A stretch of DNA of 64,000 nucleotides from Ignavibacteriota bacterium. Lineage in GTDB: Bacteria > Bacteroidota > Ignavibacteria > UBA10030 > CAVZMI01. Positions 35,739 to 43,622 of the stretch are shown in pieces. Both the position numbers and the translations under genes were made by a program. How positions within the stretch are numbered: the first letter of the stretch is position 1; each line of letters opens with the position of its first letter. The notes below the pieces were generated by a model that was given only the letters and a program-made list of their open reading frames with translations, did no database searches and was not told where the DNA came from. The stretch lies in the NCBI GenBank assembly GCA_963835935.1, contig CAWIHK010000001.1:6933-70932 (forward strand), in the 5' to 3' direction.

Positions 35739-37001
35739 CTAATACTCTTCCCCACTTGCCCTGGAAATACGTGCGCCAAGACTTTGAAGTTTTGCTTCGA
35801 TCGATTCGTAACCGCGGTCGATATGGTACACGCGGAGTACTTCGGTTGTTCCCTCAGCCACTAATCCGGCGAGAATTAAAGAAGCCGATGCCCGCAAATC
35901 TGTCGACATGACTTTCGCTCCGACCAACCGTGCGACACCTTTTACGATGGCTGAGTTTTCTTTCACTTCAATATCAGCGCCGAGACGAACCAACTCCGGA
36001 ACATGTGCAAACCGATCGGAATAAATGGTGTCGGTAACAACACTCGAACGGTCAGCAATCGCCATTAATGCTATCCATTGCGCTTGCAGGTCGGTAGGGA
36101 ATCCGGGAAAAATTGCCGTCGTAACATCGACTGATTTTATTGTAGTCGGAGCTTCGAGTTCGATCCATGTGTCGCCGCATTGAATCGTCGCGCCTGCATC
36201 TTCGAGCCGCGCCAGCAACGCGGATAAATGCCGGGGATTGCATCGATCAATCCGGACTTTCCCTCCCGTGATCATTCCGGCAATTAAAAATGTTCCGGCT
36301 TCAATACGGTCGGGGATTGTTGTTTCGTCTGCCGGATGCAATTCGTCGACACCTTCTATTTCGAGTTTCGCAGTACCGATGCCATGAATTTTTGCTCCCA
36401 TCATATTTAAAAATTCCGCAAGCTCGGTTATTTCAGGTTCAATCGCTGCGTTCTCGATAACCGTCGTTCCCTTCGCGAGCACGGCCGCCATCATTACATT
36501 GCCGGTTGCGCCGACGCTCGAAACATCGAAAATTATTTTCGCTCCCTTCAACCGTTCCGCCTTCGCGATGATGTAGCCATGATCGAGTTCCACCTCGGCT
36601 CCGAGCCGGAGCATTCCTTCAATATGCAAATTCACCGGCCGCGGGCCCCAGGCACAACCACCGGGGAGAGAAACTTTCGCGTACCCATAACGCGAGACCA
36701 ACGGACCAAGAACATAAATTGAAGCGCGCATCTTTTTCATATATTCATAAGGAGCTTCAAACTTGCTTACGCGGAATGTATTTAAAGTGAGTGTTTCTCC
36801 CTGACGATCGGTTTCCACTCCCATCATTTCCAAAAGTTTTTGCATCGAAACAATATCCCGCAGATTCGGGGTATTATGCAATCGATATGTTCCGCTGGCA
36901 AGCAATGTTGCCGGCATCAACGCAAGCGATGCGTTTTTCGCACCGCTTATGGCAACACTGCCTTGAAGTTTTACTCCGCCGTTGATAACAAATTTATCCA
37001 C
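35739..37001 (-). CDS. murA: UDP-N-acetylglucosamine 1-carboxyvinyltransferase
   Basis: GAKNA, MRASIYVLGPL, LPGGCAWGPRP, PDRIEAGT, TDLRA; probable GTG start at 37001. Confidence 0.97.
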   Translation of the reverse strand: MDKFVINGGVKLQGSVAISGAKNASLALMPATLLASGTYRLHNTPNLRDIVSMQKLLEMMGVETDRQGETLTLNTFRVSKFEAPYEYMKKMRASIYVLGPLVSRYGYAKVSLPGGCAWGPRPVNLHIEGMLRLGAEVELDHGYIIAKAERLKGAKIIFDVSSVGATGNVMMAAVLAKGTTVIENAAIEPEITELAEFLNMMGAKIHGIGTAKLEIEGVDELHPADETTIPDRIEAGTFLIAGMITGGKVRIDRCNPRHLSALLARLEDAGATIQCGDTWIELEAPTTIKSVDVTTAIFPGFPTDLQAQWIALMAIADRSSVVTDTIYSDRFAHVPELVRLGADIEVKENSAIVKGVARLVGAKVMSTDLRASASLILAGLVAEGTTEVLRVYHIDRGYESIEAKLQSLGARISRASGEEY

Positions 37002-37069
37002 CTGATTTCTTCCCAAAATGTTTTAATGAAGTTACGAAGTTGTGTGCGGATTTGCAATTGAAAAGACTC

Positions 37070-37157
37070 ATTACTTCGGGAGTATAACTCCCTCAGAACA
37101 AGCCGATATAACAAAGACAAAGAACGTTTCGAGGGAGCTCCGCTCCCGAGGCAAATG
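37070..37157. repeat. Inverted pair of REP-like hairpins (REPIN-like)
   Basis: cttcgggagtataactccctc and gagggagctccgctcccgagg are each hairpins and are inverted relative to each other. Confidence 0.6.
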
Positions 37158-37180
37158 GAATCTCCTCATATCATTATTAA

Positions 37181-37314
37181 CGGGCTTTAGCCCTAATCAA
37201 ATTATTGAAAATGGGGTTGAAACCCCATAGTGCTTTTTATTCTCTGATCCACGAGCTAAAGCTCGTGGCAATAAAATTATTTCTACATAATTATTGCATT
37301 CTACGTAACATGAG
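37181..37314 (-). mobile_element. Partial, diverged second copy of the 6042-6244 MITE (inverted)
   Basis: Reverse complement aligns by eye with 6042-6176, including TIR (ctcatgttacgta), ccacgagctttagctcgtgg, ggggtttcaacccc, gggctaaagcccg. Confidence 0.8.
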
Positions 37315-37602
37315 TTATTAAATTGCTTGCCCATAAATTCACAGCTAAAGAATATACTTGCAGACTTGATTTCTTAAAGTCTAATCCGAAATCCAAATTC
37401 TGCAATCCGCATTCACAATGCTTGCTTTTCCCAAAATATCCTCCTACATTTTCGCAGTAATTTGTTTCATATCTATAAAGCAAAAAATATTTTCGATAGA
37501 ATGATTGTGGTTGGAATATATCCGGATGCAAATTTAAATATCGATCTTAGACCGAAACCATATAAACAGTAGTTAGGTTGCCAACAAGAGAAGGGTAACT
37601 TC

Positions 37603-38130
37603 GTGGAATATGTTAAATCGATTTTAGATGTTCTCATCAAAAATATAGAATGGTTGTTTTCTGGAGTTGGAGTTGTTTTTTTAATCTGGGTAGTCAATAA
37701 ATTATCTCTGAGCAATAGAGCACGGCTTAAGGTTCGCGTCGCAGAAACAGTTTCATTTATACAAATTGTCAATAATGATTACATTGGTCCAAATATTCCA
37801 TTGCTTGGAATAACTATAACAAATTTAGGAAAAAATACAGTATTTGTGCGTCAACCTTTAGTTTGGCTATCAAAAAAAGTTGAAGATACACATACATTTC
37901 AGTTGTTACGAGTTAACGACCATTTAAATTATCCTGTAGAACTTTCACATGGGCAAGAATTTCGCATAGAAATTAAGACTGAAGCATTATACGATCAGTT
38001 GCTCAGCAATTTAAAAGATAAAGTTTTTATAAAAATTCAAGTTGAAGATACACTTGGGCGAAAATATTATTCAAGAAAACTCACCGTGAAAAGAATTCGG
38101 GAGTTTAATCAAATTAATAATACGCGATAA
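37603..38130 (+). CDS. Gene cassette 1: hypothetical protein with N-terminal TM
   Basis: AT-rich ORF preceded by core site GTTAGGT (37572-37578) and followed by an attC. Confidence 0.8.
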   Translation: MEYVKSILDVLIKNIEWLFSGVGVVFLIWVVNKLSLSNRARLKVRVAETVSFIQIVNNDYIGPNIPLLGITITNLGKNTVFVRQPLVWLSKKVEDTHTFQLLRVNDHLNYPVELSHGQEFRIEIKTEALYDQLLSNLKDKVFIKIQVEDTLGRKYYSRKLTVKRIREFNQINNTR

Positions 38131-38137
38131 TTGACGG

Positions 38138-38285
38138 CGCTAACCAAGCGCTGAAGCTGACGGAATATGCGCGGGTGCAAAAGTCCGCGCAAAATGGTAA
38201 GGATAAAATTTAAATATGAGTTCGGCGCTAGGAAGGAACAATTTGAAGGTTTACAGTACCGCAGCTTAGCCGCCAATCGTTAGGC
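38138..38285 (+). other. attC site (intact)
   Basis: R'' CGCTAAC (38138-38144); L'' gctGaagctgAcgg (38150-38163) pairs with L' ccgcagcttagc (38259-38270) leaving two extrahelical bases; R' GTTAGGC (38279-38285). Confidence 0.88.
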
Positions 38286-38307
38286 CGCTAATCTTTGGAA
38301 TAAAACA

Positions 38308-38868
38308 ATGGAAGAATGGATCAAGTTCTATACTCCTTATTTTGCAAACGAAGATGAAGCTCATGAATTCGTAGAATGTTGTGAAAATGGGTCAGGTGCA
38401 AGTTCTGCAAAATTAATTATGCATCAAACACAACGACTCATTTCTTTATCAAAAGATGTATCAGTTCTTCGTCAGGGGTATGATGGTCTTCAATTGTTAT
38501 TTCTCATTATTTGTGCTGAGAATGTGGCTAAACTTGCGTATAATTTTAACAAGGAAAGTAGCTCACGGAAGTACGTCAAAATATTCTTTACCGAATTTCT
38601 TAGCGAAGTTGATAAGAATTGTCTTATACAAGGCGTTGTTGGATTTAATAACGAACATCTATCCCTTGAAGCAATTGTTATGGCATTTTATAAAATTCGA
38701 TGTGAAGTTGTCCACGAAGGCAAAAGCTGGGGATTTTCTTTCAGTAAGAATGGATCGCAAATGTTTAGTTTGCCAAATTTTATAGTACGTATTCAATTAA
38801 AAGAGTTACGCGACATTATTGTTAGAGGCTCTATTTGTGCAGCCAATAAATCGTTAATCGCGGCCTAA
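38308..38868 (+). CDS. Gene cassette 2: putative HEPN-superfamily protein
   Basis: Cassette ends gttaggccgc/gcggcctaac are perfect complements; protein has E-containing helix (CAENVA) and R-X4-H motif (IRCEVVHEG). Confidence 0.7.
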   Translation: MEEWIKFYTPYFANEDEAHEFVECCENGSGASSAKLIMHQTQRLISLSKDVSVLRQGYDGLQLLFLIICAENVAKLAYNFNKESSSRKYVKIFFTEFLSEVDKNCLIQGVVGFNNEHLSLEAIVMAFYKIRCEVVHEGKSWGFSFSKNGSQMFSLPNFIVRIQLKELRDIIVRGSICAANKSLIAA

Positions 38869-38899
38869 CCACTTTAAAAAGGAAAAAGTCAAGAGAAAA

Positions 38900-39186
38900 T
38901 AGATCTCCCGAGACATCATAACATGAATGATGTCGAAAATGTTCATTGAATTAATAAAGACCGATGCGTGCTGGTGCCGCATACTCTATCGAGTGGACAA
39001 CCGCTCGAACGCAATGACGTCCAAACCACTTTACGGATTTACTTCCAATTCATTCATATATCAATGAAGGAAGTTCGTCTCGGCAAAGCGAGACACTCCA
39101 GATATTAAAACGGCACAACGCCTATCTTCCCAATCCAGGCGACGATGCTCAAGGCAATCAGTTAGGCATCCGGGCTTGATAGGCGC
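38900..39186 (-). ncRNA. Predicted bridge/seek RNA of the IS1111-type element
   Basis: Guides matching target (39161-39167, 39135-39141) and donor junction (39101-39107, 39026-39033), each pair flanking hairpins and closed by stems; transcript ends are approximate. Confidence 0.85.
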
Positions 39187-40163
39187 GGCCACTGCTGTGA
39201 TTTCTGTCGACTAATCGGTTGCCCCTTGAATCCTTTATATTGTGATTTATTTTTTAAAATATAATAGACAATCTTCGCAAGTTCTTTGGCAACACAAGCG
39301 CGAGCGATGGCTTGTCCGGAACGCCTGGCACGTTTCAGATAGAAGCGTTTGTATTCTGCATAATATTGAATGGCATGAACAGCAGCATCGGAGAAAGCGA
39401 TCTTAAGATATTTATTGCCGTCTTTACTTGAGCGATGATGCATAGAGCGATTGGAGTTATCGGCTGCGGGCACGAGACGGCAATAGGAGACAAAATGTTT
39501 ATCTGAATCGAAGCGTTCGATGCCGTCGATTTCGAGATAGATGGTAAATGCCGAGAGTTTGCCGATGCCGGGAATGTAGAGAAGTCGTTGGATATCGTCG
39601 TTGGGAATCAGGACCGGATGGAGAGATTTTTCGAGTGCAAGGATCTGCTCGGCGAGTGTATCGCGCGTATGTTCTAAGACAGCGAGTTGGAAACGATACG
39701 GATCAGGCACAGAGCCGTTAAACTTTGCATGAATGCTTTTGAGTCGTCGTAGTGTGTCGGAATGTTGCTGGACAAGGCGTAAACGAATGCGCATGGTATC
39801 GCGCAGACCTCGCAATTCACGGCTGATTTTGTGAGCGCGTGGAATAAGATTCTGTCGTAAAAGTATGGCGAGGGTTTGCGAATCAACTTTATCTGTTTTA
39901 ACTTTAGCATAACTGATGGCTTTGAGATATTTGGCATGAGCAAGAACGAGTTCGATACCGTGATCGCTGAGAAGATCGTTGAGCCAGTACCAACCTGTTG
40001 TAGATTCGACGACAGCTTGATGAGAGCCGGGCAAGGACTGGAAATAATCGAGCACACAATGATCGATATTTTCAATGCGTTGTTGTTTGACGACAGTACC
40101 GTTATCATCAACGGTTGTGATATACGAGTTATCAGAATGCAGATCGATACCTGAGTAATACAT
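39162..40163 (-). CDS. IS110-family DEDD transposase/recombinase (333 aa)
   Basis: GIDLH, VVEST, KTDKVD (D-E-D-D), IPGIGKLSA, YCRLVP...DNS, GNKYLK; ATG at 40163 with AAGGAG RBS. Confidence 0.95.
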   Translation of the reverse strand: MYYSGIDLHSDNSYITTVDDNGTVVKQQRIENIDHCVLDYFQSLPGSHQAVVESTTGWYWLNDLLSDHGIELVLAHAKYLKAISYAKVKTDKVDSQTLAILLRQNLIPRAHKISRELRGLRDTMRIRLRLVQQHSDTLRRLKSIHAKFNGSVPDPYRFQLAVLEHTRDTLAEQILALEKSLHPVLIPNDDIQRLLYIPGIGKLSAFTIYLEIDGIERFDSDKHFVSYCRLVPAADNSNRSMHHRSSKDGNKYLKIAFSDAAVHAIQYYAEYKRFYLKRARRSGQAIARACVAKELAKIVYYILKNKSQYKGFKGQPISRQKSQQWPRLSSPDA

Positions 40164-40284
40164 GGGAATCTCCTTTTGCGCCTGAGGCGCATCAGCCTTT
40201 GGCTGAGATCGTGAATGTTGTTTACTTCGACAATGAGCAATGTACATAATCGGGAGATTCCTTTTTGATAATATCCAGGCGCTC

Positions 40285-40358
40285 CCCGACAAAGAACGTC
40301 GGGATTCTCAATTCGACCACGACTTACCTAAAGAACGATAAGTCTGTCGAATTGGAAC
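40285..40358. repeat. 74-bp double-hairpin insert within attC
   Basis: cccgac-AAAGAAC-gtcggg followed by caattcgac...gactta-cctAAAGAACga-taagtc...gtcgaattg. Confidence 0.7.
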
Positions 40359-40503
40359 AAGCTGACGGAAAAAGCGCGCGCGTTGAAAGTTTAAATTGTG
40401 AATTTAGGTAAGGTATCACGCGCGACGGCGGTAAAGTTGGAAGATTATCAGTGCCGCAGCTTAGCGCCGATCCTGCTTAGACAAATAAAGTAAAGAATTT
40501 CTT

Positions 40504-41000
40504 ATGGAAACCAATTATTATATGATCCAGGAAAGCGAAAGAATAATTATAATTTGTATAGTGATGATCAGTTTAGGAAAACTAATTGACTGGTTTCTTC
40601 GAAAGAGGTAAAAAGACCAAATTTTAGAATCTCTAAAGCGTTTCGAAAATTTGTTAGCAAAGACTTCTATAAAAGAATGGCAATGGCTTATCGCAAAATA
40701 CTTATTAGATTCATTTAATAAAATTAGAAATTTCTGGCATAAAATAATGTTTATTTTCGAACCAGATGATGATCTAACAAAAAATGAATTAAGAGCATAT
40801 TCTTTTCCGGAAGATTTTAGAAAATTTACAAAAGAAGGCTTTTATGGTCTTGCACTTGTGTTCCTTCTCATGATAATGCCATTAATTTTATATTCATGGG
40901 GTATTAAAAATAATATTTGGTTTCTTACTACTTTGCTTCTTCCAGGGATTTTTATATCGCTGTTTCCTATAATAGCGATAATTCTAGTAATAATCAGAAT
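40504..41000 (+). pseudogene. Gene cassette 3: membrane protein with in-frame TAA (40609-40611), interrupted by IS4
   Basis: ATG at 40504 is in frame with ORF 40651-41043; a single stop separates them; the IS4 left end starts at 41001. Confidence 0.7.
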
Positions 41001-42367
41001 CACACTTGTCCAAAATAAAATCTCCGGAAAGTGGTACCTTTAAGGTGGAAACCAAAAAAGAACAACCACAAACCGGAGCGACATATGTCACATAAGGGTA
41101 CGAACATTTTTTCACAAATAGTAGAATATATTGATAAAAAAGAATTCGCCCGAATAGTTCGTAAGAATAACGGGGAACGTCATACAAAAGGATTTTCGTG
41201 TTGGGAACAATTGGTGAGCATGCTATTCTGCCAACTTGGGAAAGCCCAGTCCTTGCGAGAAATTTGCGGTGGATTGGCGACATGCATGGGAAGACTGTCA
41301 CACCTTGGATTAAAAGAGAGTCCCAAGCGGTCAACATTATCCTATGCAAATGGGCACCGATCATATGAGATTTTTGAAGAAACATTTTATCAGGTTTTAC
41401 AACACGCTCAAACATGTATACAAGGGAAAAAGTCGTTCCGATTTAAAAATAAACTTTTTAGCATGGATGCGACAACCATAGACTTATGTTTGAATTTATT
41501 TGACTGGGCAAAATTCCGTCGGAAGAAGGGGGCAGTGAAACTCCACATGTTGCTTGATCACGATGGATATCTTCCTGTGTTTGCCCACATTACCGATGGA
41601 AAAACACATAAAGCAACAGTCACAAAGAACAAAATTGCCAATGATTTCAGCTTTCCCGCCGATAGCATCATCGTCTTTGACCGAGGATATAACGACTACG
41701 AACAATTCGCCCATTGGTGCGATCAGGACATTTACTTCGTAACCCGCATGAAAAGTAACGCAACGTATGATGTTGTTCAAAAGAACCCCCTACCTCAGAA
41801 CAGCAATATTCTGAAAGACGAGATTATTCAATTTAACGGCCCGGTCACTTCAGAAAAATGTGAGTATGACCTTCGCCGGATCGAAGTATGGGACGAGAAG
41901 AACCAGACGATCCTGGTCTTACTCACCAATCATTTACGATTTGGCAGTACAACGATTGCCCGGATTTACAAAGAACGATGGCAAATAGAGATCTTTTTCA
42001 AAACACTGAAGCAGAACTTGAAAATCAAAACTTTTGTCGGCACCAGCGCCAATGCTTTGAAAATTCAAATTTGGACAGCATTACTTGTCATGCTAATTCT
42101 TAAAATACTTAGAGCAAAGGCTATGTTTAAATGGTCACTCTCAAATCTTGTCGCAATGTTGAGATTCAATCTCTTTACGTACCGGGATCTCAATGAATGG
42201 CTCAATGATCCATTTCAGAGTCCACCATTTGTGCCAGATGTTCAGCTTTCTTTATTTGATCTTGGACAGCATTCAGGGGCTTACTCCAAGACTTTCCTAA
42301 AATATTGTCCAAATTGAGCCATGATCAATAGTTTTTTATCTATATCTATTTATTTTGGACAGTAGTG
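41001..42367 (+). mobile_element. IS4-family insertion sequence
   Basis: 19-bp imperfect TIRs cacacttgtccaaaataaa / tttattttggacagtagtg; no flanking direct repeat visible. Confidence 0.88.
41085..42317 (+). CDS. IS4-family DDE transposase (DUF4372-like N-terminus)
   Basis: MDATTI, VFDRGY, YKERWQIEIFFK (YREK signature); ATG at 41085 with GGAG RBS. Confidence 0.95.
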   Translation: MSHKGTNIFSQIVEYIDKKEFARIVRKNNGERHTKGFSCWEQLVSMLFCQLGKAQSLREICGGLATCMGRLSHLGLKESPKRSTLSYANGHRSYEIFEETFYQVLQHAQTCIQGKKSFRFKNKLFSMDATTIDLCLNLFDWAKFRRKKGAVKLHMLLDHDGYLPVFAHITDGKTHKATVTKNKIANDFSFPADSIIVFDRGYNDYEQFAHWCDQDIYFVTRMKSNATYDVVQKNPLPQNSNILKDEIIQFNGPVTSEKCEYDLRRIEVWDEKNQTILVLLTNHLRFGSTTIARIYKERWQIEIFFKTLKQNLKIKTFVGTSANALKIQIWTALLVMLILKILRAKAMFKWSLSNLVAMLRFNLFTYRDLNEWLNDPFQSPPFVPDVQLSLFDLGQHSGAYSKTFLKYCPN

Positions 42368-42725
42368 AAGCCAAGTATTAGTATGGTAATACAATATTAT
42401 ATTTAGCAGTACTATTTGATAATACAATCCTCTTTGTAATAATTACTCAGTGGTGTTACGCGCAAAAGATGAATTAGAAGCCGTGCCTTTGGCAGATTCC
42501 TTCGGAACGAAATATGAAATGGTTTCTGGAGCTTTTTTCTCAAACGGCGCTGCGTGAGGATTAATAACAGATTAATTCTTGTTTTCCGGTGTTCGCGTTC
42601 TTTCATCGTTTTTGAAAGAGAGTAGTATGTAGATTATCTCTCTTGCTCGAAAGGAACTATAAATTATTTTTCAATTATCTATTGACTTTTTACATAACAG
42701 CTTGGGGCGCTGGATTGCCATCAAG

Positions 42726-43622
42726 TTATTTCAAAAGAACAAGTCTAATTGATTTTGATTCATTATTTACACGTACAACACATAGATATACACCGCTAGA
42801 TTTATTTAACGCGTTCCAAATAATAGAATGATTCCCGCTTTCGAGTACACCATCAAATACAGTTTCAACTAACTTTCCCAAAATATCATAAATACATATT
42901 GTTGTTTCCGATCTGCTTGAAATATTAAAAGATATTACCGTAGCAGGATTAAATGGATTAGGATAATTTTGTTCAACAACAAAATTTTGCGGGCCCTCTT
43001 TTGATTTATTCGTTTCGACTGAAGTTACTACCTTATTTGTGAGCGTATCATATGCAATAGTTTCTATCCCTCCATAATCATGAAAAGCCGTTTGGATAAC
43101 ACCTGCTGACTTTACTACTGTAGTTGTATCCGTTTCTGTAAATCCATGTAAAAATGATGAGTATTCAGTAATAATTAATGTATCTTGTAATGCTGCTGGC
43201 GAGTAGCGCGAAAGCAGTGTTTCATTTGACGATAAAAAAAGATAGGGATAAATATTTTCTGACGCATATAAGGTCAATTTATGATTACCACTTAAATTTT
43301 CAACAATTGTAAACAAAGTAGAATCGATAATTGTATATGATGTATCAGACTCATGTCGAGGAATCTCATCAAAGCTATAAACGACATTCCGTTTTTCCTG
43401 AAAATTCCAAATAATCGAATCTGGAGTTACATTATTTGAAAGTACAGTATATTGTGCTTTGCCATCATACCATGAAAAAGTAGATATTATTGGATTTTCA
43501 ATCAGGCAATGATATGCGAACGTCCACCTATTGCCAACACTTAATGGAAAAAAATCATTAGAAGATGTTTGTGCAAGAACAACCGATGGAACAAATAAAA
43601 ACCAAAAATATTTATAATTCAT
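42726..43622 (-). CDS. Secreted protein with T9SS type A C-terminal sorting domain
   Basis: Signal peptide; EQNYPNPFNPAT...IYDILGKLV...SSGVYL...LVLLK. Confidence 0.88.
   Translation of the reverse strand: MNYKYFWFLFVPSVVLAQTSSNDFFPLSVGNRWTFAYHCLIENPIISTFSWYDGKAQYTVLSNNVTPDSIIWNFQEKRNVVYSFDEIPRHESDTSYTIIDSTLFTIVENLSGNHKLTLYASENIYPYLFLSSNETLLSRYSPAALQDTLIITEYSSFLHGFTETDTTTVVKSAGVIQTAFHDYGGIETIAYDTLTNKVVTSVETNKSKEGPQNFVVEQNYPNPFNPATVISFNISSRSETTICIYDILGKLVETVFDGVLESGNHSIIWNALNKSSGVYLCVVRVNNESKSIRLVLLK

Follow-up and report, generated by a model that had tools for sequence, protein, structure and literature searches.

A stretch of 64,000 nucleotides (nt) from an Ignavibacteriota genome (GenBank assembly GCA_963835935.1, contig CAWIHK010000001.1; hereafter the window) carries on its minus strand a feature that, judged by its sequence, is a well-supported intact IS1111-type insertion sequence (IS) of the IS110 family, seated in the end of an attC-type site. 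We hold with high confidence that this element is RNA-guided and that it entered the R''-proximal end of an attC without duplicating its target, in antisense orientation to a small array of cassettes. The guided, attC-aimed reading is supported because the guides covary with the flanks, the helices of the RNA are kept by compensatory change, the catalytic residues of the recombinase are conserved, and the target has attC-like anatomy. On these same grounds the central proposal of an earlier note on this DNA, an IS110/IS1111 recombinase with a two-loop 3' guide RNA aimed at attC, stands.

Read on the minus strand, the region runs ...GTCGGGGAGCGCC-TGG|ATATTATCAAAAAGGAATCTCCCGA ... TTGACTTTTTCCTTTTTAAAG-TGG|TTAGGCCGCG. 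At the left junction, ...GAGCGCC-TGG|ATATTA, the left target (40281-40278) and the core (40277-40275) are followed by the left end, which begins ATATTA at 40274; at the right junction, ...TAAAG-TGG|TTAGGC, the right end terminates with its TGG (38871-38869) and the right target follows (38868-38863). The core TGG is thus present at both junctions, and uninterrupted CGCC-TGG-TTAGG sites carry a single TGG, i.e. there is no target duplication. The interval 38863-40284 proposed earlier does hold the element but also takes in the target flanks, which the limits given here leave outside:

40274..38869, minus strand: insertion sequence proper, 1406 nt, delimited by alignment with three paralogues and 63 parsed relatives
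39162..40163, minus strand: recombinase gene, 333 amino acids (aa), from Pfam
40275..40281, minus strand: left target flank CGCC plus core TGG, matching its guide 7/7
38863..38868, minus strand: right target flank TTAGGC; plus-strand 38863-38869, GCCTAAC, is the R'' box of the attC
40258..40266, minus strand: left subterminal inverted repeat AAAAAGGAA, conserved in alignments with relatives
38884-38876, minus strand: right subterminal repeat TTCCTTTTT, partner of AAAAAGGAA, likewise conserved
38876..38892, minus strand: right-end block of TTGACT (38892-38887), which resembles a -35 hexamer, and TTCCTTTTT

These boundaries are corroborated by three more copies in the same genome and by 77 loci in other genomes, obtained from a scan of one genome per species; nearly all of the latter are metagenome-assembled genomes labelled Ignavibacteriota, Ignavibacteria or Bacteroidota. 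When the four copies of the window's genome are aligned, they have in common the left end ATATTA and the right end ...TTTTTAAA[G/A]TGG, and diverge outside. The subterminal repeat is 9 bp long; outside it the left end extends for 8 nt, and the right end for 4 nt plus TGG. A regular expression finds TTGA[CT] at a constant 24 nt from the right end in each of the 63 parsed elements, and in a joined circle TTGACT would stand 18-19 nt from the left-end ATATTA/TATTAT. The circle junction therefore probably builds a promoter (TTGACT from the right end, TATTAT from the left) that would drive both the gene and the RNA, a role modelled on ISEc11 and IS621. The non-coding DNA is distributed unevenly: 293 nt from the stop codon (39162) to the right end (38869) versus 111 nt upstream of the gene (40274-40164).

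The ends hold further complementarities. Besides the outer subterminal repeat there is an inner inverted repeat, ATCTCCCGA/TCGGGAGAT (40258-40250 and 38911-38903, minus strand), which reads CTCCC/GGGAG in relatives. Within the left end, GGAATCTCC (40261-40253, minus strand) is exactly complementary to GGAGATTCC (40172-40164), which spans the ribosome-binding site before the ATG; a covarying counterpart, the pair GGAACCTCC with GGAGGTTCC, is found in three relatives (L022, L023 and L026). From its sequence this looks like a hairpin that would sequester the ribosome-binding site in transcripts that read into the element from outside.

The putative bridge/seek RNA would be encoded by about 215 nt (39186-38974), starting 25 nt inside the recombinase gene, and consists of two modules (all on the minus strand):

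39118..39186, minus strand: target-binding module, from RNAfold with the guides unpaired
39186-39178 with 39126-39118, minus strand: closing stem of the first module, in which CGCCTATC (39185-39178) pairs with GATAGGCG (39126-39119)
39174-39170 with 39133-39129, minus strand: inner helix CCCGG with UUGGG, from the fold
39167-39161, minus strand: right target guide GCCUAAC
39160-39143, minus strand: hairpin between the target guides, from the fold
39141-39135, minus strand: left target guide CGCCUGG, in the same sense as the left target plus core
38974..39116, minus strand: donor-binding module, from the fold and covariation (helices 4-8)
39116-39110 with 38980-38974, minus strand: closing stem of the second module, GTGCCGT with GCGGCAC, 7 pairs, one of them G-U
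39107-39101, minus strand: right donor guide UAAUAUC
39100-39097 with 39038-39035, minus strand: helix UGGA with UCCG, enclosing hairpins 39095-39076 and 39074-39041
39033-39026, minus strand: left donor guide UAAAGUGG
39022-38998, minus strand: third hairpin of the donor module, from the fold
about 38995-38986, minus strand: conserved CGAUAGA motif between the last hairpin and the closing stem

In the first module GCCUAAC would pair with the top strand of the right target (G+TTAGGC) and CGCCUGG with the bottom strand of the left target plus core. In the second, UAAUAUC would pair with the top strand of the element's left end (G+ATATTA) and UAAAGUGG with the bottom strand of its right end plus core, the two ends being joined in the circle as TAAAG-TGG-ATATTA; a tetramer of the 333-aa DEDD/Ser recombinase would then exchange strands at the shared position. 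By analogy with IS621, ISEc11 and ISKpn4, we infer that the RNA is made, processed and bound by the enzyme, and that it directs catalysis. The stop codon of the gene (TAA, 39164-39162) supplies the UAA inside the right target guide.

All strings quoted in the earlier note lie on the minus strand where it had placed them, among them TAAAGTGG (39033-39026), the DNA string of the left donor guide. The four guides of the window element match their flanks or ends at 7/7, 7/7, 7/7 and 7/7 positions, and each of the four heptamers occurs once in the 294 nt from 39186 to 38893. Among 200,000 mononucleotide shuffles of that segment, 188,039 contained none of the heptamers, 11,688 one and 273 two; none contained three or four, and the presence of all four is therefore far beyond chance. 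When the four guides are held unpaired, RNAfold returns the two-module architecture, reproducing the two loops and closing stems that had been drawn from the letters alone; the z-score of the unconstrained RNA fold is -2.28. The frame 'guide-UG...CG-U-guide' described for both loops is literal in the window, whereas relatives keep only its 'guide-UG' half.

The recombinase shows the domain order of the family: PF01548 (DEDD_Tnp_IS110; 57.9 bits against a cut-off of 29, E 1.4e-15) over residues 5-143 and PF02371 (Transposase_20; 62 bits against 21.3, E 7.1e-17) over residues 192-275. Alignment places the catalytic residues at D7, E53, D91, D94 and S237. Among solved structures, phmmer retrieved only ISCro4 (9t56, E 6.3e-8) and IS621 (8wt6, E 6.2e-6), with KTDKVD falling on KTDTVD of IS621 and the serine of ...ADNS237N... 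on that of IS621 ...ESG...; in IS621 the serine is S241 and the aspartates are D102/D105 (PMC11208158). The serine is present at the catalytic motif in 57 of 59 full-length relatives (in the other two no such motif was found) and is followed by asparagine in 23, glycine in 20 and alanine in 14, asparagine being the residue of the group closest to the window. Compared with the IS1111 C-terminal motif GL-P----S(t)G, the window's RLVPAADNSN retains L, P and S, the first G being replaced by R and the last by N. The best plasmid-borne IS110-family protein reaches at most 34% identity.

The other three copies in the genome (96-100% identity in protein, 88-92% in DNA) carry a different version of the same RNA. 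Their first closing stem is CGTGTGCA/TGCACACG instead of CGCCTATC/GATAGGCG, a fully compensatory change; they differ also in both inner hairpins, in the left target guide and in one base of the left donor guide, a G to A change that shifts together with the right end. The window copy is the sole copy of its sub-lineage in the genome, its three paralogues having other left target and donor guides, as would be expected of a stranded relic, no longer mobile, whose perfect match merely records its last insertion. We consider this unlikely, since the reading frame is open and neither the catalytic residues, nor either end, nor the subterminal repeats, nor any of the four guides is damaged; nothing in the element is broken. 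A solo 3' remnant does occur elsewhere in the genome (C6:240984-241155, L101); it spans about 190 nt, starting at the second inner hairpin and closing with the right end, beyond which TTAGAC follows, and its donor guide AAAAUGG mismatches its own right end AAAGTGG.

For the element as an RNA-guided IS with an attC target, the site itself is the next line of evidence. The relevant features of the integron context are:

38308-38868, plus strand: cassette open reading frame (ORF) whose stop TAA (38866-38868) lies inside the R'' box GCCTAAC
40275..40485, plus strand: rest of the interrupted attC, with the L'' arm CCAGGCGCT..., then AGCTGACGG, CCGCAGCTTAGCGCC and GCTTAGAC
38137..38287, plus strand: neighbouring intact attC-like site after cassette ORF 37603-38130, reading GCGCTAAC ... 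GCTGAAGCTGACGG ... CCGCAGCTTAGCC ... GTTAGGC

In the bottom-strand DNA fold of the neighbouring site, the R and L boxes are paired and there are bulged bases. Two to three such ORF-plus-site units lie co-oriented within the window; neither of the two cassette ORFs (37603-38130 and 38308-38868) has a match in Pfam. The element sits near the 5' (R'') end of its attC, antisense to the cassettes, and ISPa21/ISPst6 are reported in the same position and orientation (PMC3001079). Uninterrupted sites are abundant beside the relatives: 93 (89 distinct) were found in 42 of the 77 loci, all on the IS strand and none on the opposite one, with up to five per 6-kb locus and a median spacing of 959 bp. Thirteen of the 93 contain exactly CGCCTGGTTAGG (CGCC-TGG-TTAGG), i.e. 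the pre-insertion target that the earlier note had reconstructed for the window, and the same empty-target string, followed by another IS, stands at C2:117382 in the window's own genome. Among 62 unique occupied sites, 47 have the L''-arm motif within 24 nt. In the window's genome a regular expression for empty sites gave 11 matches, of which 1 was a true site, and nhmmer with a left-flank profile gave 4 sites; the attC sites of this genome are heterogeneous. The genome encodes an integron integrase (contig C5:861452-862396) that scores 484.5 bits against the TIGR02249 cut-off of 265.

That the guides are aimed at some other palindromic repeat family, or at decayed attC relics instead of working attC sites, is less probable still than a stranded relic. 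Such a target would agree with the integrase being on contig C5 and not beside the window, with the mere four short-repeat-type sites that nhmmer detects in the genome, with the weak z-score (-1.67) of the attC fold at 38137-38287, and with the length of the window sites (about 150 nt and over 200 nt), of which the interrupted one has a non-canonical R' (GCTTAGAC). Set against this are the R''/R' and L''/L' boxes with their bulges, the stop codon inside R'', the co-oriented repeats every few hundred bases beside relatives with their 93 to 0 strand bias, a position and orientation as in the IS1111-attC group, and a bona fide IntI in the genome, complete integrons having been reported in Ignavibacteriae (PMC9024848).

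Some further observations concern the array. The C5 integrase is the only one in the genome above the curated cut-off and lies 162 nt from the contig end; its cassette array may continue on another contig. The interrupted attC contains an extra stretch of about 75 nt (approximately 40290-40365, plus strand), which recurs at 88% identity in the attC beside one of the paralogues (L004) and holds two small inverted repeats, CCCCGAC...GTCGGG and TCAATTCGAC...GTCGAATTG; it may represent a variable centre of the attC or else a miniature insertion. Two units downstream, an IS4-type DDE transposase gene (DUF4372, DDE_Tnp_1; 41031-42317, plus strand) overlaps the end of ORF 40651-41043. Insertion sequences in general collect in this cassette cluster.

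The strongest argument for guidance by RNA comes from the relatives, which split into a closer group (75-88% identity) and a distant group (53-63% identity). The 78 elements considered are those of the 74 loci with a match in place, the window and the three paralogues; 63 could be parsed for ends and four guides. After one of these (L059) was dropped for a mis-extracted guide, the covariation set consisted of 62 elements, which have 32 different guide sets and 35 end sets and stand at 61 unique sites. Among the relatives are many independent insertions, placed at one and the same position of co-oriented attC-like repeats. Guide sets were permuted 20,000 times among lineages, a test that is uncorrected for relatedness and for host-specific attC types, and for none of the four guides did any of the 20,000 permutations reach the observed number of matches: 333/427 for the left target guide (permutation mean 254), 371/427 for the right target guide (338), 238/245 for the left donor guide (191) and 232/245 for the right donor guide (219). 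With one site per lineage, the two target guides still gave 170/224 and 196/224 matches versus 137 and 181, again with 0/20,000. Covariation of guides with flanks in homologues, which the earlier note had named as a way to check its proposal, is thus present over 32 guide sets. The clearest case of natural retargeting is the series L078-L096, in which UGCAUUG goes with TGCATTG, ACAUAAC with GTTATGT, and the donor guide AAAGAUG with the right end AAAGATG; in L022 the guide CCCUAAC goes with the flank GTTAGGG. The donor guides AAAG/AAAA/AAAC-UGG, AAAGAGG, UAAGCGG and AAAGAUG each go with a right end of the same letters. At one position the left donor guide varies with the right end (A, G or C), and it likewise keeps step with AGG, CGG and ATG cores.

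The helices tell the same story. Over 11 closer-group sequences the proportion of paired cells is 82.5%, and it falls to 34-43% if the partners are displaced by 1-3 columns; both sides are altered in 29 of 60 pairs, and none of 500 shuffles reaches the observed covariation, although the tested structure was derived from one of the 11 sequences, which somewhat favours it. Within this set the first closing stem is 100% paired with 6 of its 9 pairs changed on both sides, and the UGGA/UCCG helix switches from A-U to G-C in 3 of the 11. From a MAFFT alignment of 33 sequences, RNAalifold recovered only the first closing stem (6 compensatory pairs, up to 4 pair types); misalignment of the variable hairpins accounts for the loss of the rest. 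Between sub-lineages the segments between the guides diverge completely in sequence, and their helices are nevertheless kept by compensatory change.

The motif near 38995-38986 also differs between the groups: CGAUAGA in the closer one, AGAUAUUA (with GAUAUU) in the distant one. It is complementary to the right donor guide, partly in the closer and fully in the distant group, and on this complementarity the right donor guide may be masked in the free RNA by the conserved 3' motif. The GAUAUU motif of the distant group lengthens the closing stem of the donor module. In either form the motif was considered as a candidate fifth guide.

Apart from the attC-side points given above and the lack of correction in the permutation test, the following weigh against a guided element aimed at attC. 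Fifteen of the 78 elements were unparsed (contig ends or failure of the regular expression), and one more was lost to the mis-extracted guide. Donor-side covariation is explicable in part by co-inheritance, guide and end being carried by one element. The three paralogues have one guide, GCGCUGG, for sites CCGC, CGAC and CGCC-TGG (6, 4 and 4 of 7 matches), a lineage of nine copies (L027-L036) matches at only 5-6/7 on the left and 5-7/7 on the right, and L037 matches poorly on all sides. In the 53-63% group the middle core base is often off (guide UGG, flank TTG or GTG). Over the 62 elements, left flank cores are TTG (27), TGG (26), GTG (5), GGG (3) and TAG (1), with the last G reported for 61/62, and right end cores are TGG (22), ATG (21), AGG (12) and CGG (7), with the last G in 62/62; only the last core base is fixed, which speaks against strict programming. 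Finally, a scan of 36000-43000 against Rfam 15 (E up to 1) gave a single chance-level match to a long non-coding RNA, located elsewhere in that interval, and a search of sequencing runs listed no RNA run containing the stretch but five DNA runs with small shares of it (0.04-0.19). The absence of an Rfam match to the guide region, the 1-3 mismatches tolerated by the left guide in several copies, and the structured nature of attC sites, which other elements recognise, might suggest that the matches are features of the DNA (protein-binding sites or leftovers of earlier insertions) and that attC is found by protein or fold without a guide RNA, but this is highly improbable given guides that covary with host flanks outside the element, the compensated inter-guide helices, and an arrangement identical to that of experimentally proven seek/bridge RNAs.

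The IS1111-type element is not the only IS110-family element at attC ends. A second, unrelated one (C2:117395-119020; L100, about 496-2125) encodes a 468-aa protein with PF01548 and PF02371, which aligns with the window recombinase only over residues 51-144. It is present in six identical copies, the others at C6:72352, C1:293806, C1:846606, C2:148682 and C2:932020. The left junction is ...T[G/T]GTTAG|GCAACCC in each of the six, the right end is ...CTTGGAAG|, and the 5' non-coding region of about 220 nt contains CCCGTTGGTTAGG and CCCGTTTGGAAGAG, which resemble left target and left donor guides in the same frame. Three of these copies lie in the same attC end, 4 nt from the IS1111-type site, and one abuts the right end of a paralogue (L002), whose end recreates the TGGTTAG target. 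A third IS110-family element (L039, L042 and L060, about 1100-2420), at 21-24% identity and with a 3' non-coding region and the end ...TTGACTTTTTACATAA, lies in the L'' arm of the same attC, 16 nt upstream of the IS1111-type insertion point and oriented the same way. The non-coding region of this third element includes GCTCAAGCTTG, a complement of the flank CAGCTTGAG. In L024 (about 2100-2418) the IS1111-type element abuts the right end of yet another IS110-type element.

The IS1111-type clade itself uses at least three target dialects: ...TGG|TTAGG; ...TTG|TTAGG/TTATG; and TGCA-TTG|TTATGT. We tentatively propose, as a possibility that falls somewhat short of an even chance, that the R''-proximal end of attC in Ignavibacteriota-type genomes is a shared landing pad, reached independently by several unrelated RNA-guided IS110-family lineages that retune their guides. 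Should the clade not be sister to the proteobacterial IS1111-attC group, then targeting of attC by guide RNA arose more than once. Several RNA-guided insertion sequences appear to have settled in the sedentary cassette arrays of environmental bacteria, in some cases next to each other, which bears on the decay or freezing of arrays.

Much of the underlying biology is known from two papers of 2024. IS1111-family elements have a long non-coding region downstream of the gene, and from it a seekRNA of 70-100 nt co-purifies with the enzyme (Siddiquee et al. 2024, PMC11187229). ISKpn4 and ISPst6, whose seekRNAs were purified, and ISPa25 by prediction, target one attC end (PMC11187229). Durrant et al. 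2024 (PMC11208160) predict a bridge RNA in the right end of 93% of IS1111s and draw target and donor loops for three. Two traits that the earlier note had singled out prove ordinary in this light: the right-guide-first order is the published IS1111 order, in which, opposite to IS110 types, the segment matching the top strand lies 5' of the one matching the bottom strand, and a 333-aa enzyme falls inside the published 330-350-aa range of the family (both PMC11187229). Our literature search found no paper joining Ignavibacteria with IS110 or attC-targeting elements, and nothing closer than the two papers of 2024. Both the mechanism and guide-RNA targeting of attC are already in print, and the element is, by its sequence, a new divergent lineage in Ignavibacteriota-labelled genomes. 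The interest of this lineage lies first in its 32 natural guide sets with their sites and ends, from which the strict positions (right target TTAG, last core G, donor guides) can be told from the loose ones (-3 to -5 on the left, middle core base), in an IS type that is much less studied than IS621. Second, the covariation supports a donor-binding loop in an IS1111-type RNA, a point left aside by the seekRNA paper. The compact, divergent enzyme/RNA pair is in addition a candidate for ortholog screens.

Of the known systems, the nearest is the IS1111-attC group (ISKpn4, ISPst6, ISPa21, ISPa25), said to have been described by Tetu and Holmes in 2008 and by Post and Hall in 2009. In common with it are a DEDD/Ser recombinase of about 330-350 aa, a long downstream non-coding region, subterminal inverted repeats and a guide RNA whose top-strand match precedes the bottom-strand one; both insert without duplication close to the 5' (R'') end of attC, against the direction of the cassettes. 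The hosts of that group are Proteobacteria, whereas the window lineage occurs in Ignavibacteriota- or Bacteroidota-labelled genomes; the window sub-lineage has asparagine instead of glycine or alanine after the catalytic serine; and its subterminal repeat and extensions (9 bp, with 8 and 4 nt plus core) differ from the published usual values (11-13 bp, with 7 and 3 nt), the repeat length being inside the 7-17 bp range of Durrant et al. (PMC11208160). Two plasmid IS candidates inspected as ISKpn4/ISPa21-type references (H4 from Pseudomonas and H32 from Klebsiella) were neither of them in an integron. IS4321/IS5075, canonical IS1111-family elements of enterobacterial plasmids, have the same domain order and align over residues 5-311 (92% of the recombinase) at 23.2-23.7% identity. 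Their target is reportedly (Partridge and Hall, 2003) the inverted repeats of Tn21-type transposons and not attC.

With IS621 and ISCro4 (Durrant et al. 2024; Hiraizumi et al. 2024; PDB 8wt6, 9t56) the element has in common a two-loop RNA, left guides for the bottom strand and right guides for the top strand, and a composite DEDD plus Ser active site. The IS621 core is CT, with T invariant and a looser first base (PMC11208158); here it is likewise the last base, G, that is fixed and the preceding one that is looser. In IS621/ISCro4, in contrast, the RNA lies in the left end and has the opposite guide order, the protein similarity is weak (E 6e-6 to 6e-8, residues 63-319 only), and the donor module is smaller than the branched loop with three hairpins found here, where the RNA lies in the right end. 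Group IIC-attC introns, finally, are also RNA-based, and their insertions likewise lie antisense to the cassettes and close to the 5' end of attC (PMC3001079), but these introns are retroelements with a ribozyme and a reverse transcriptase, and have no component in common with the IS1111-type element of the window.

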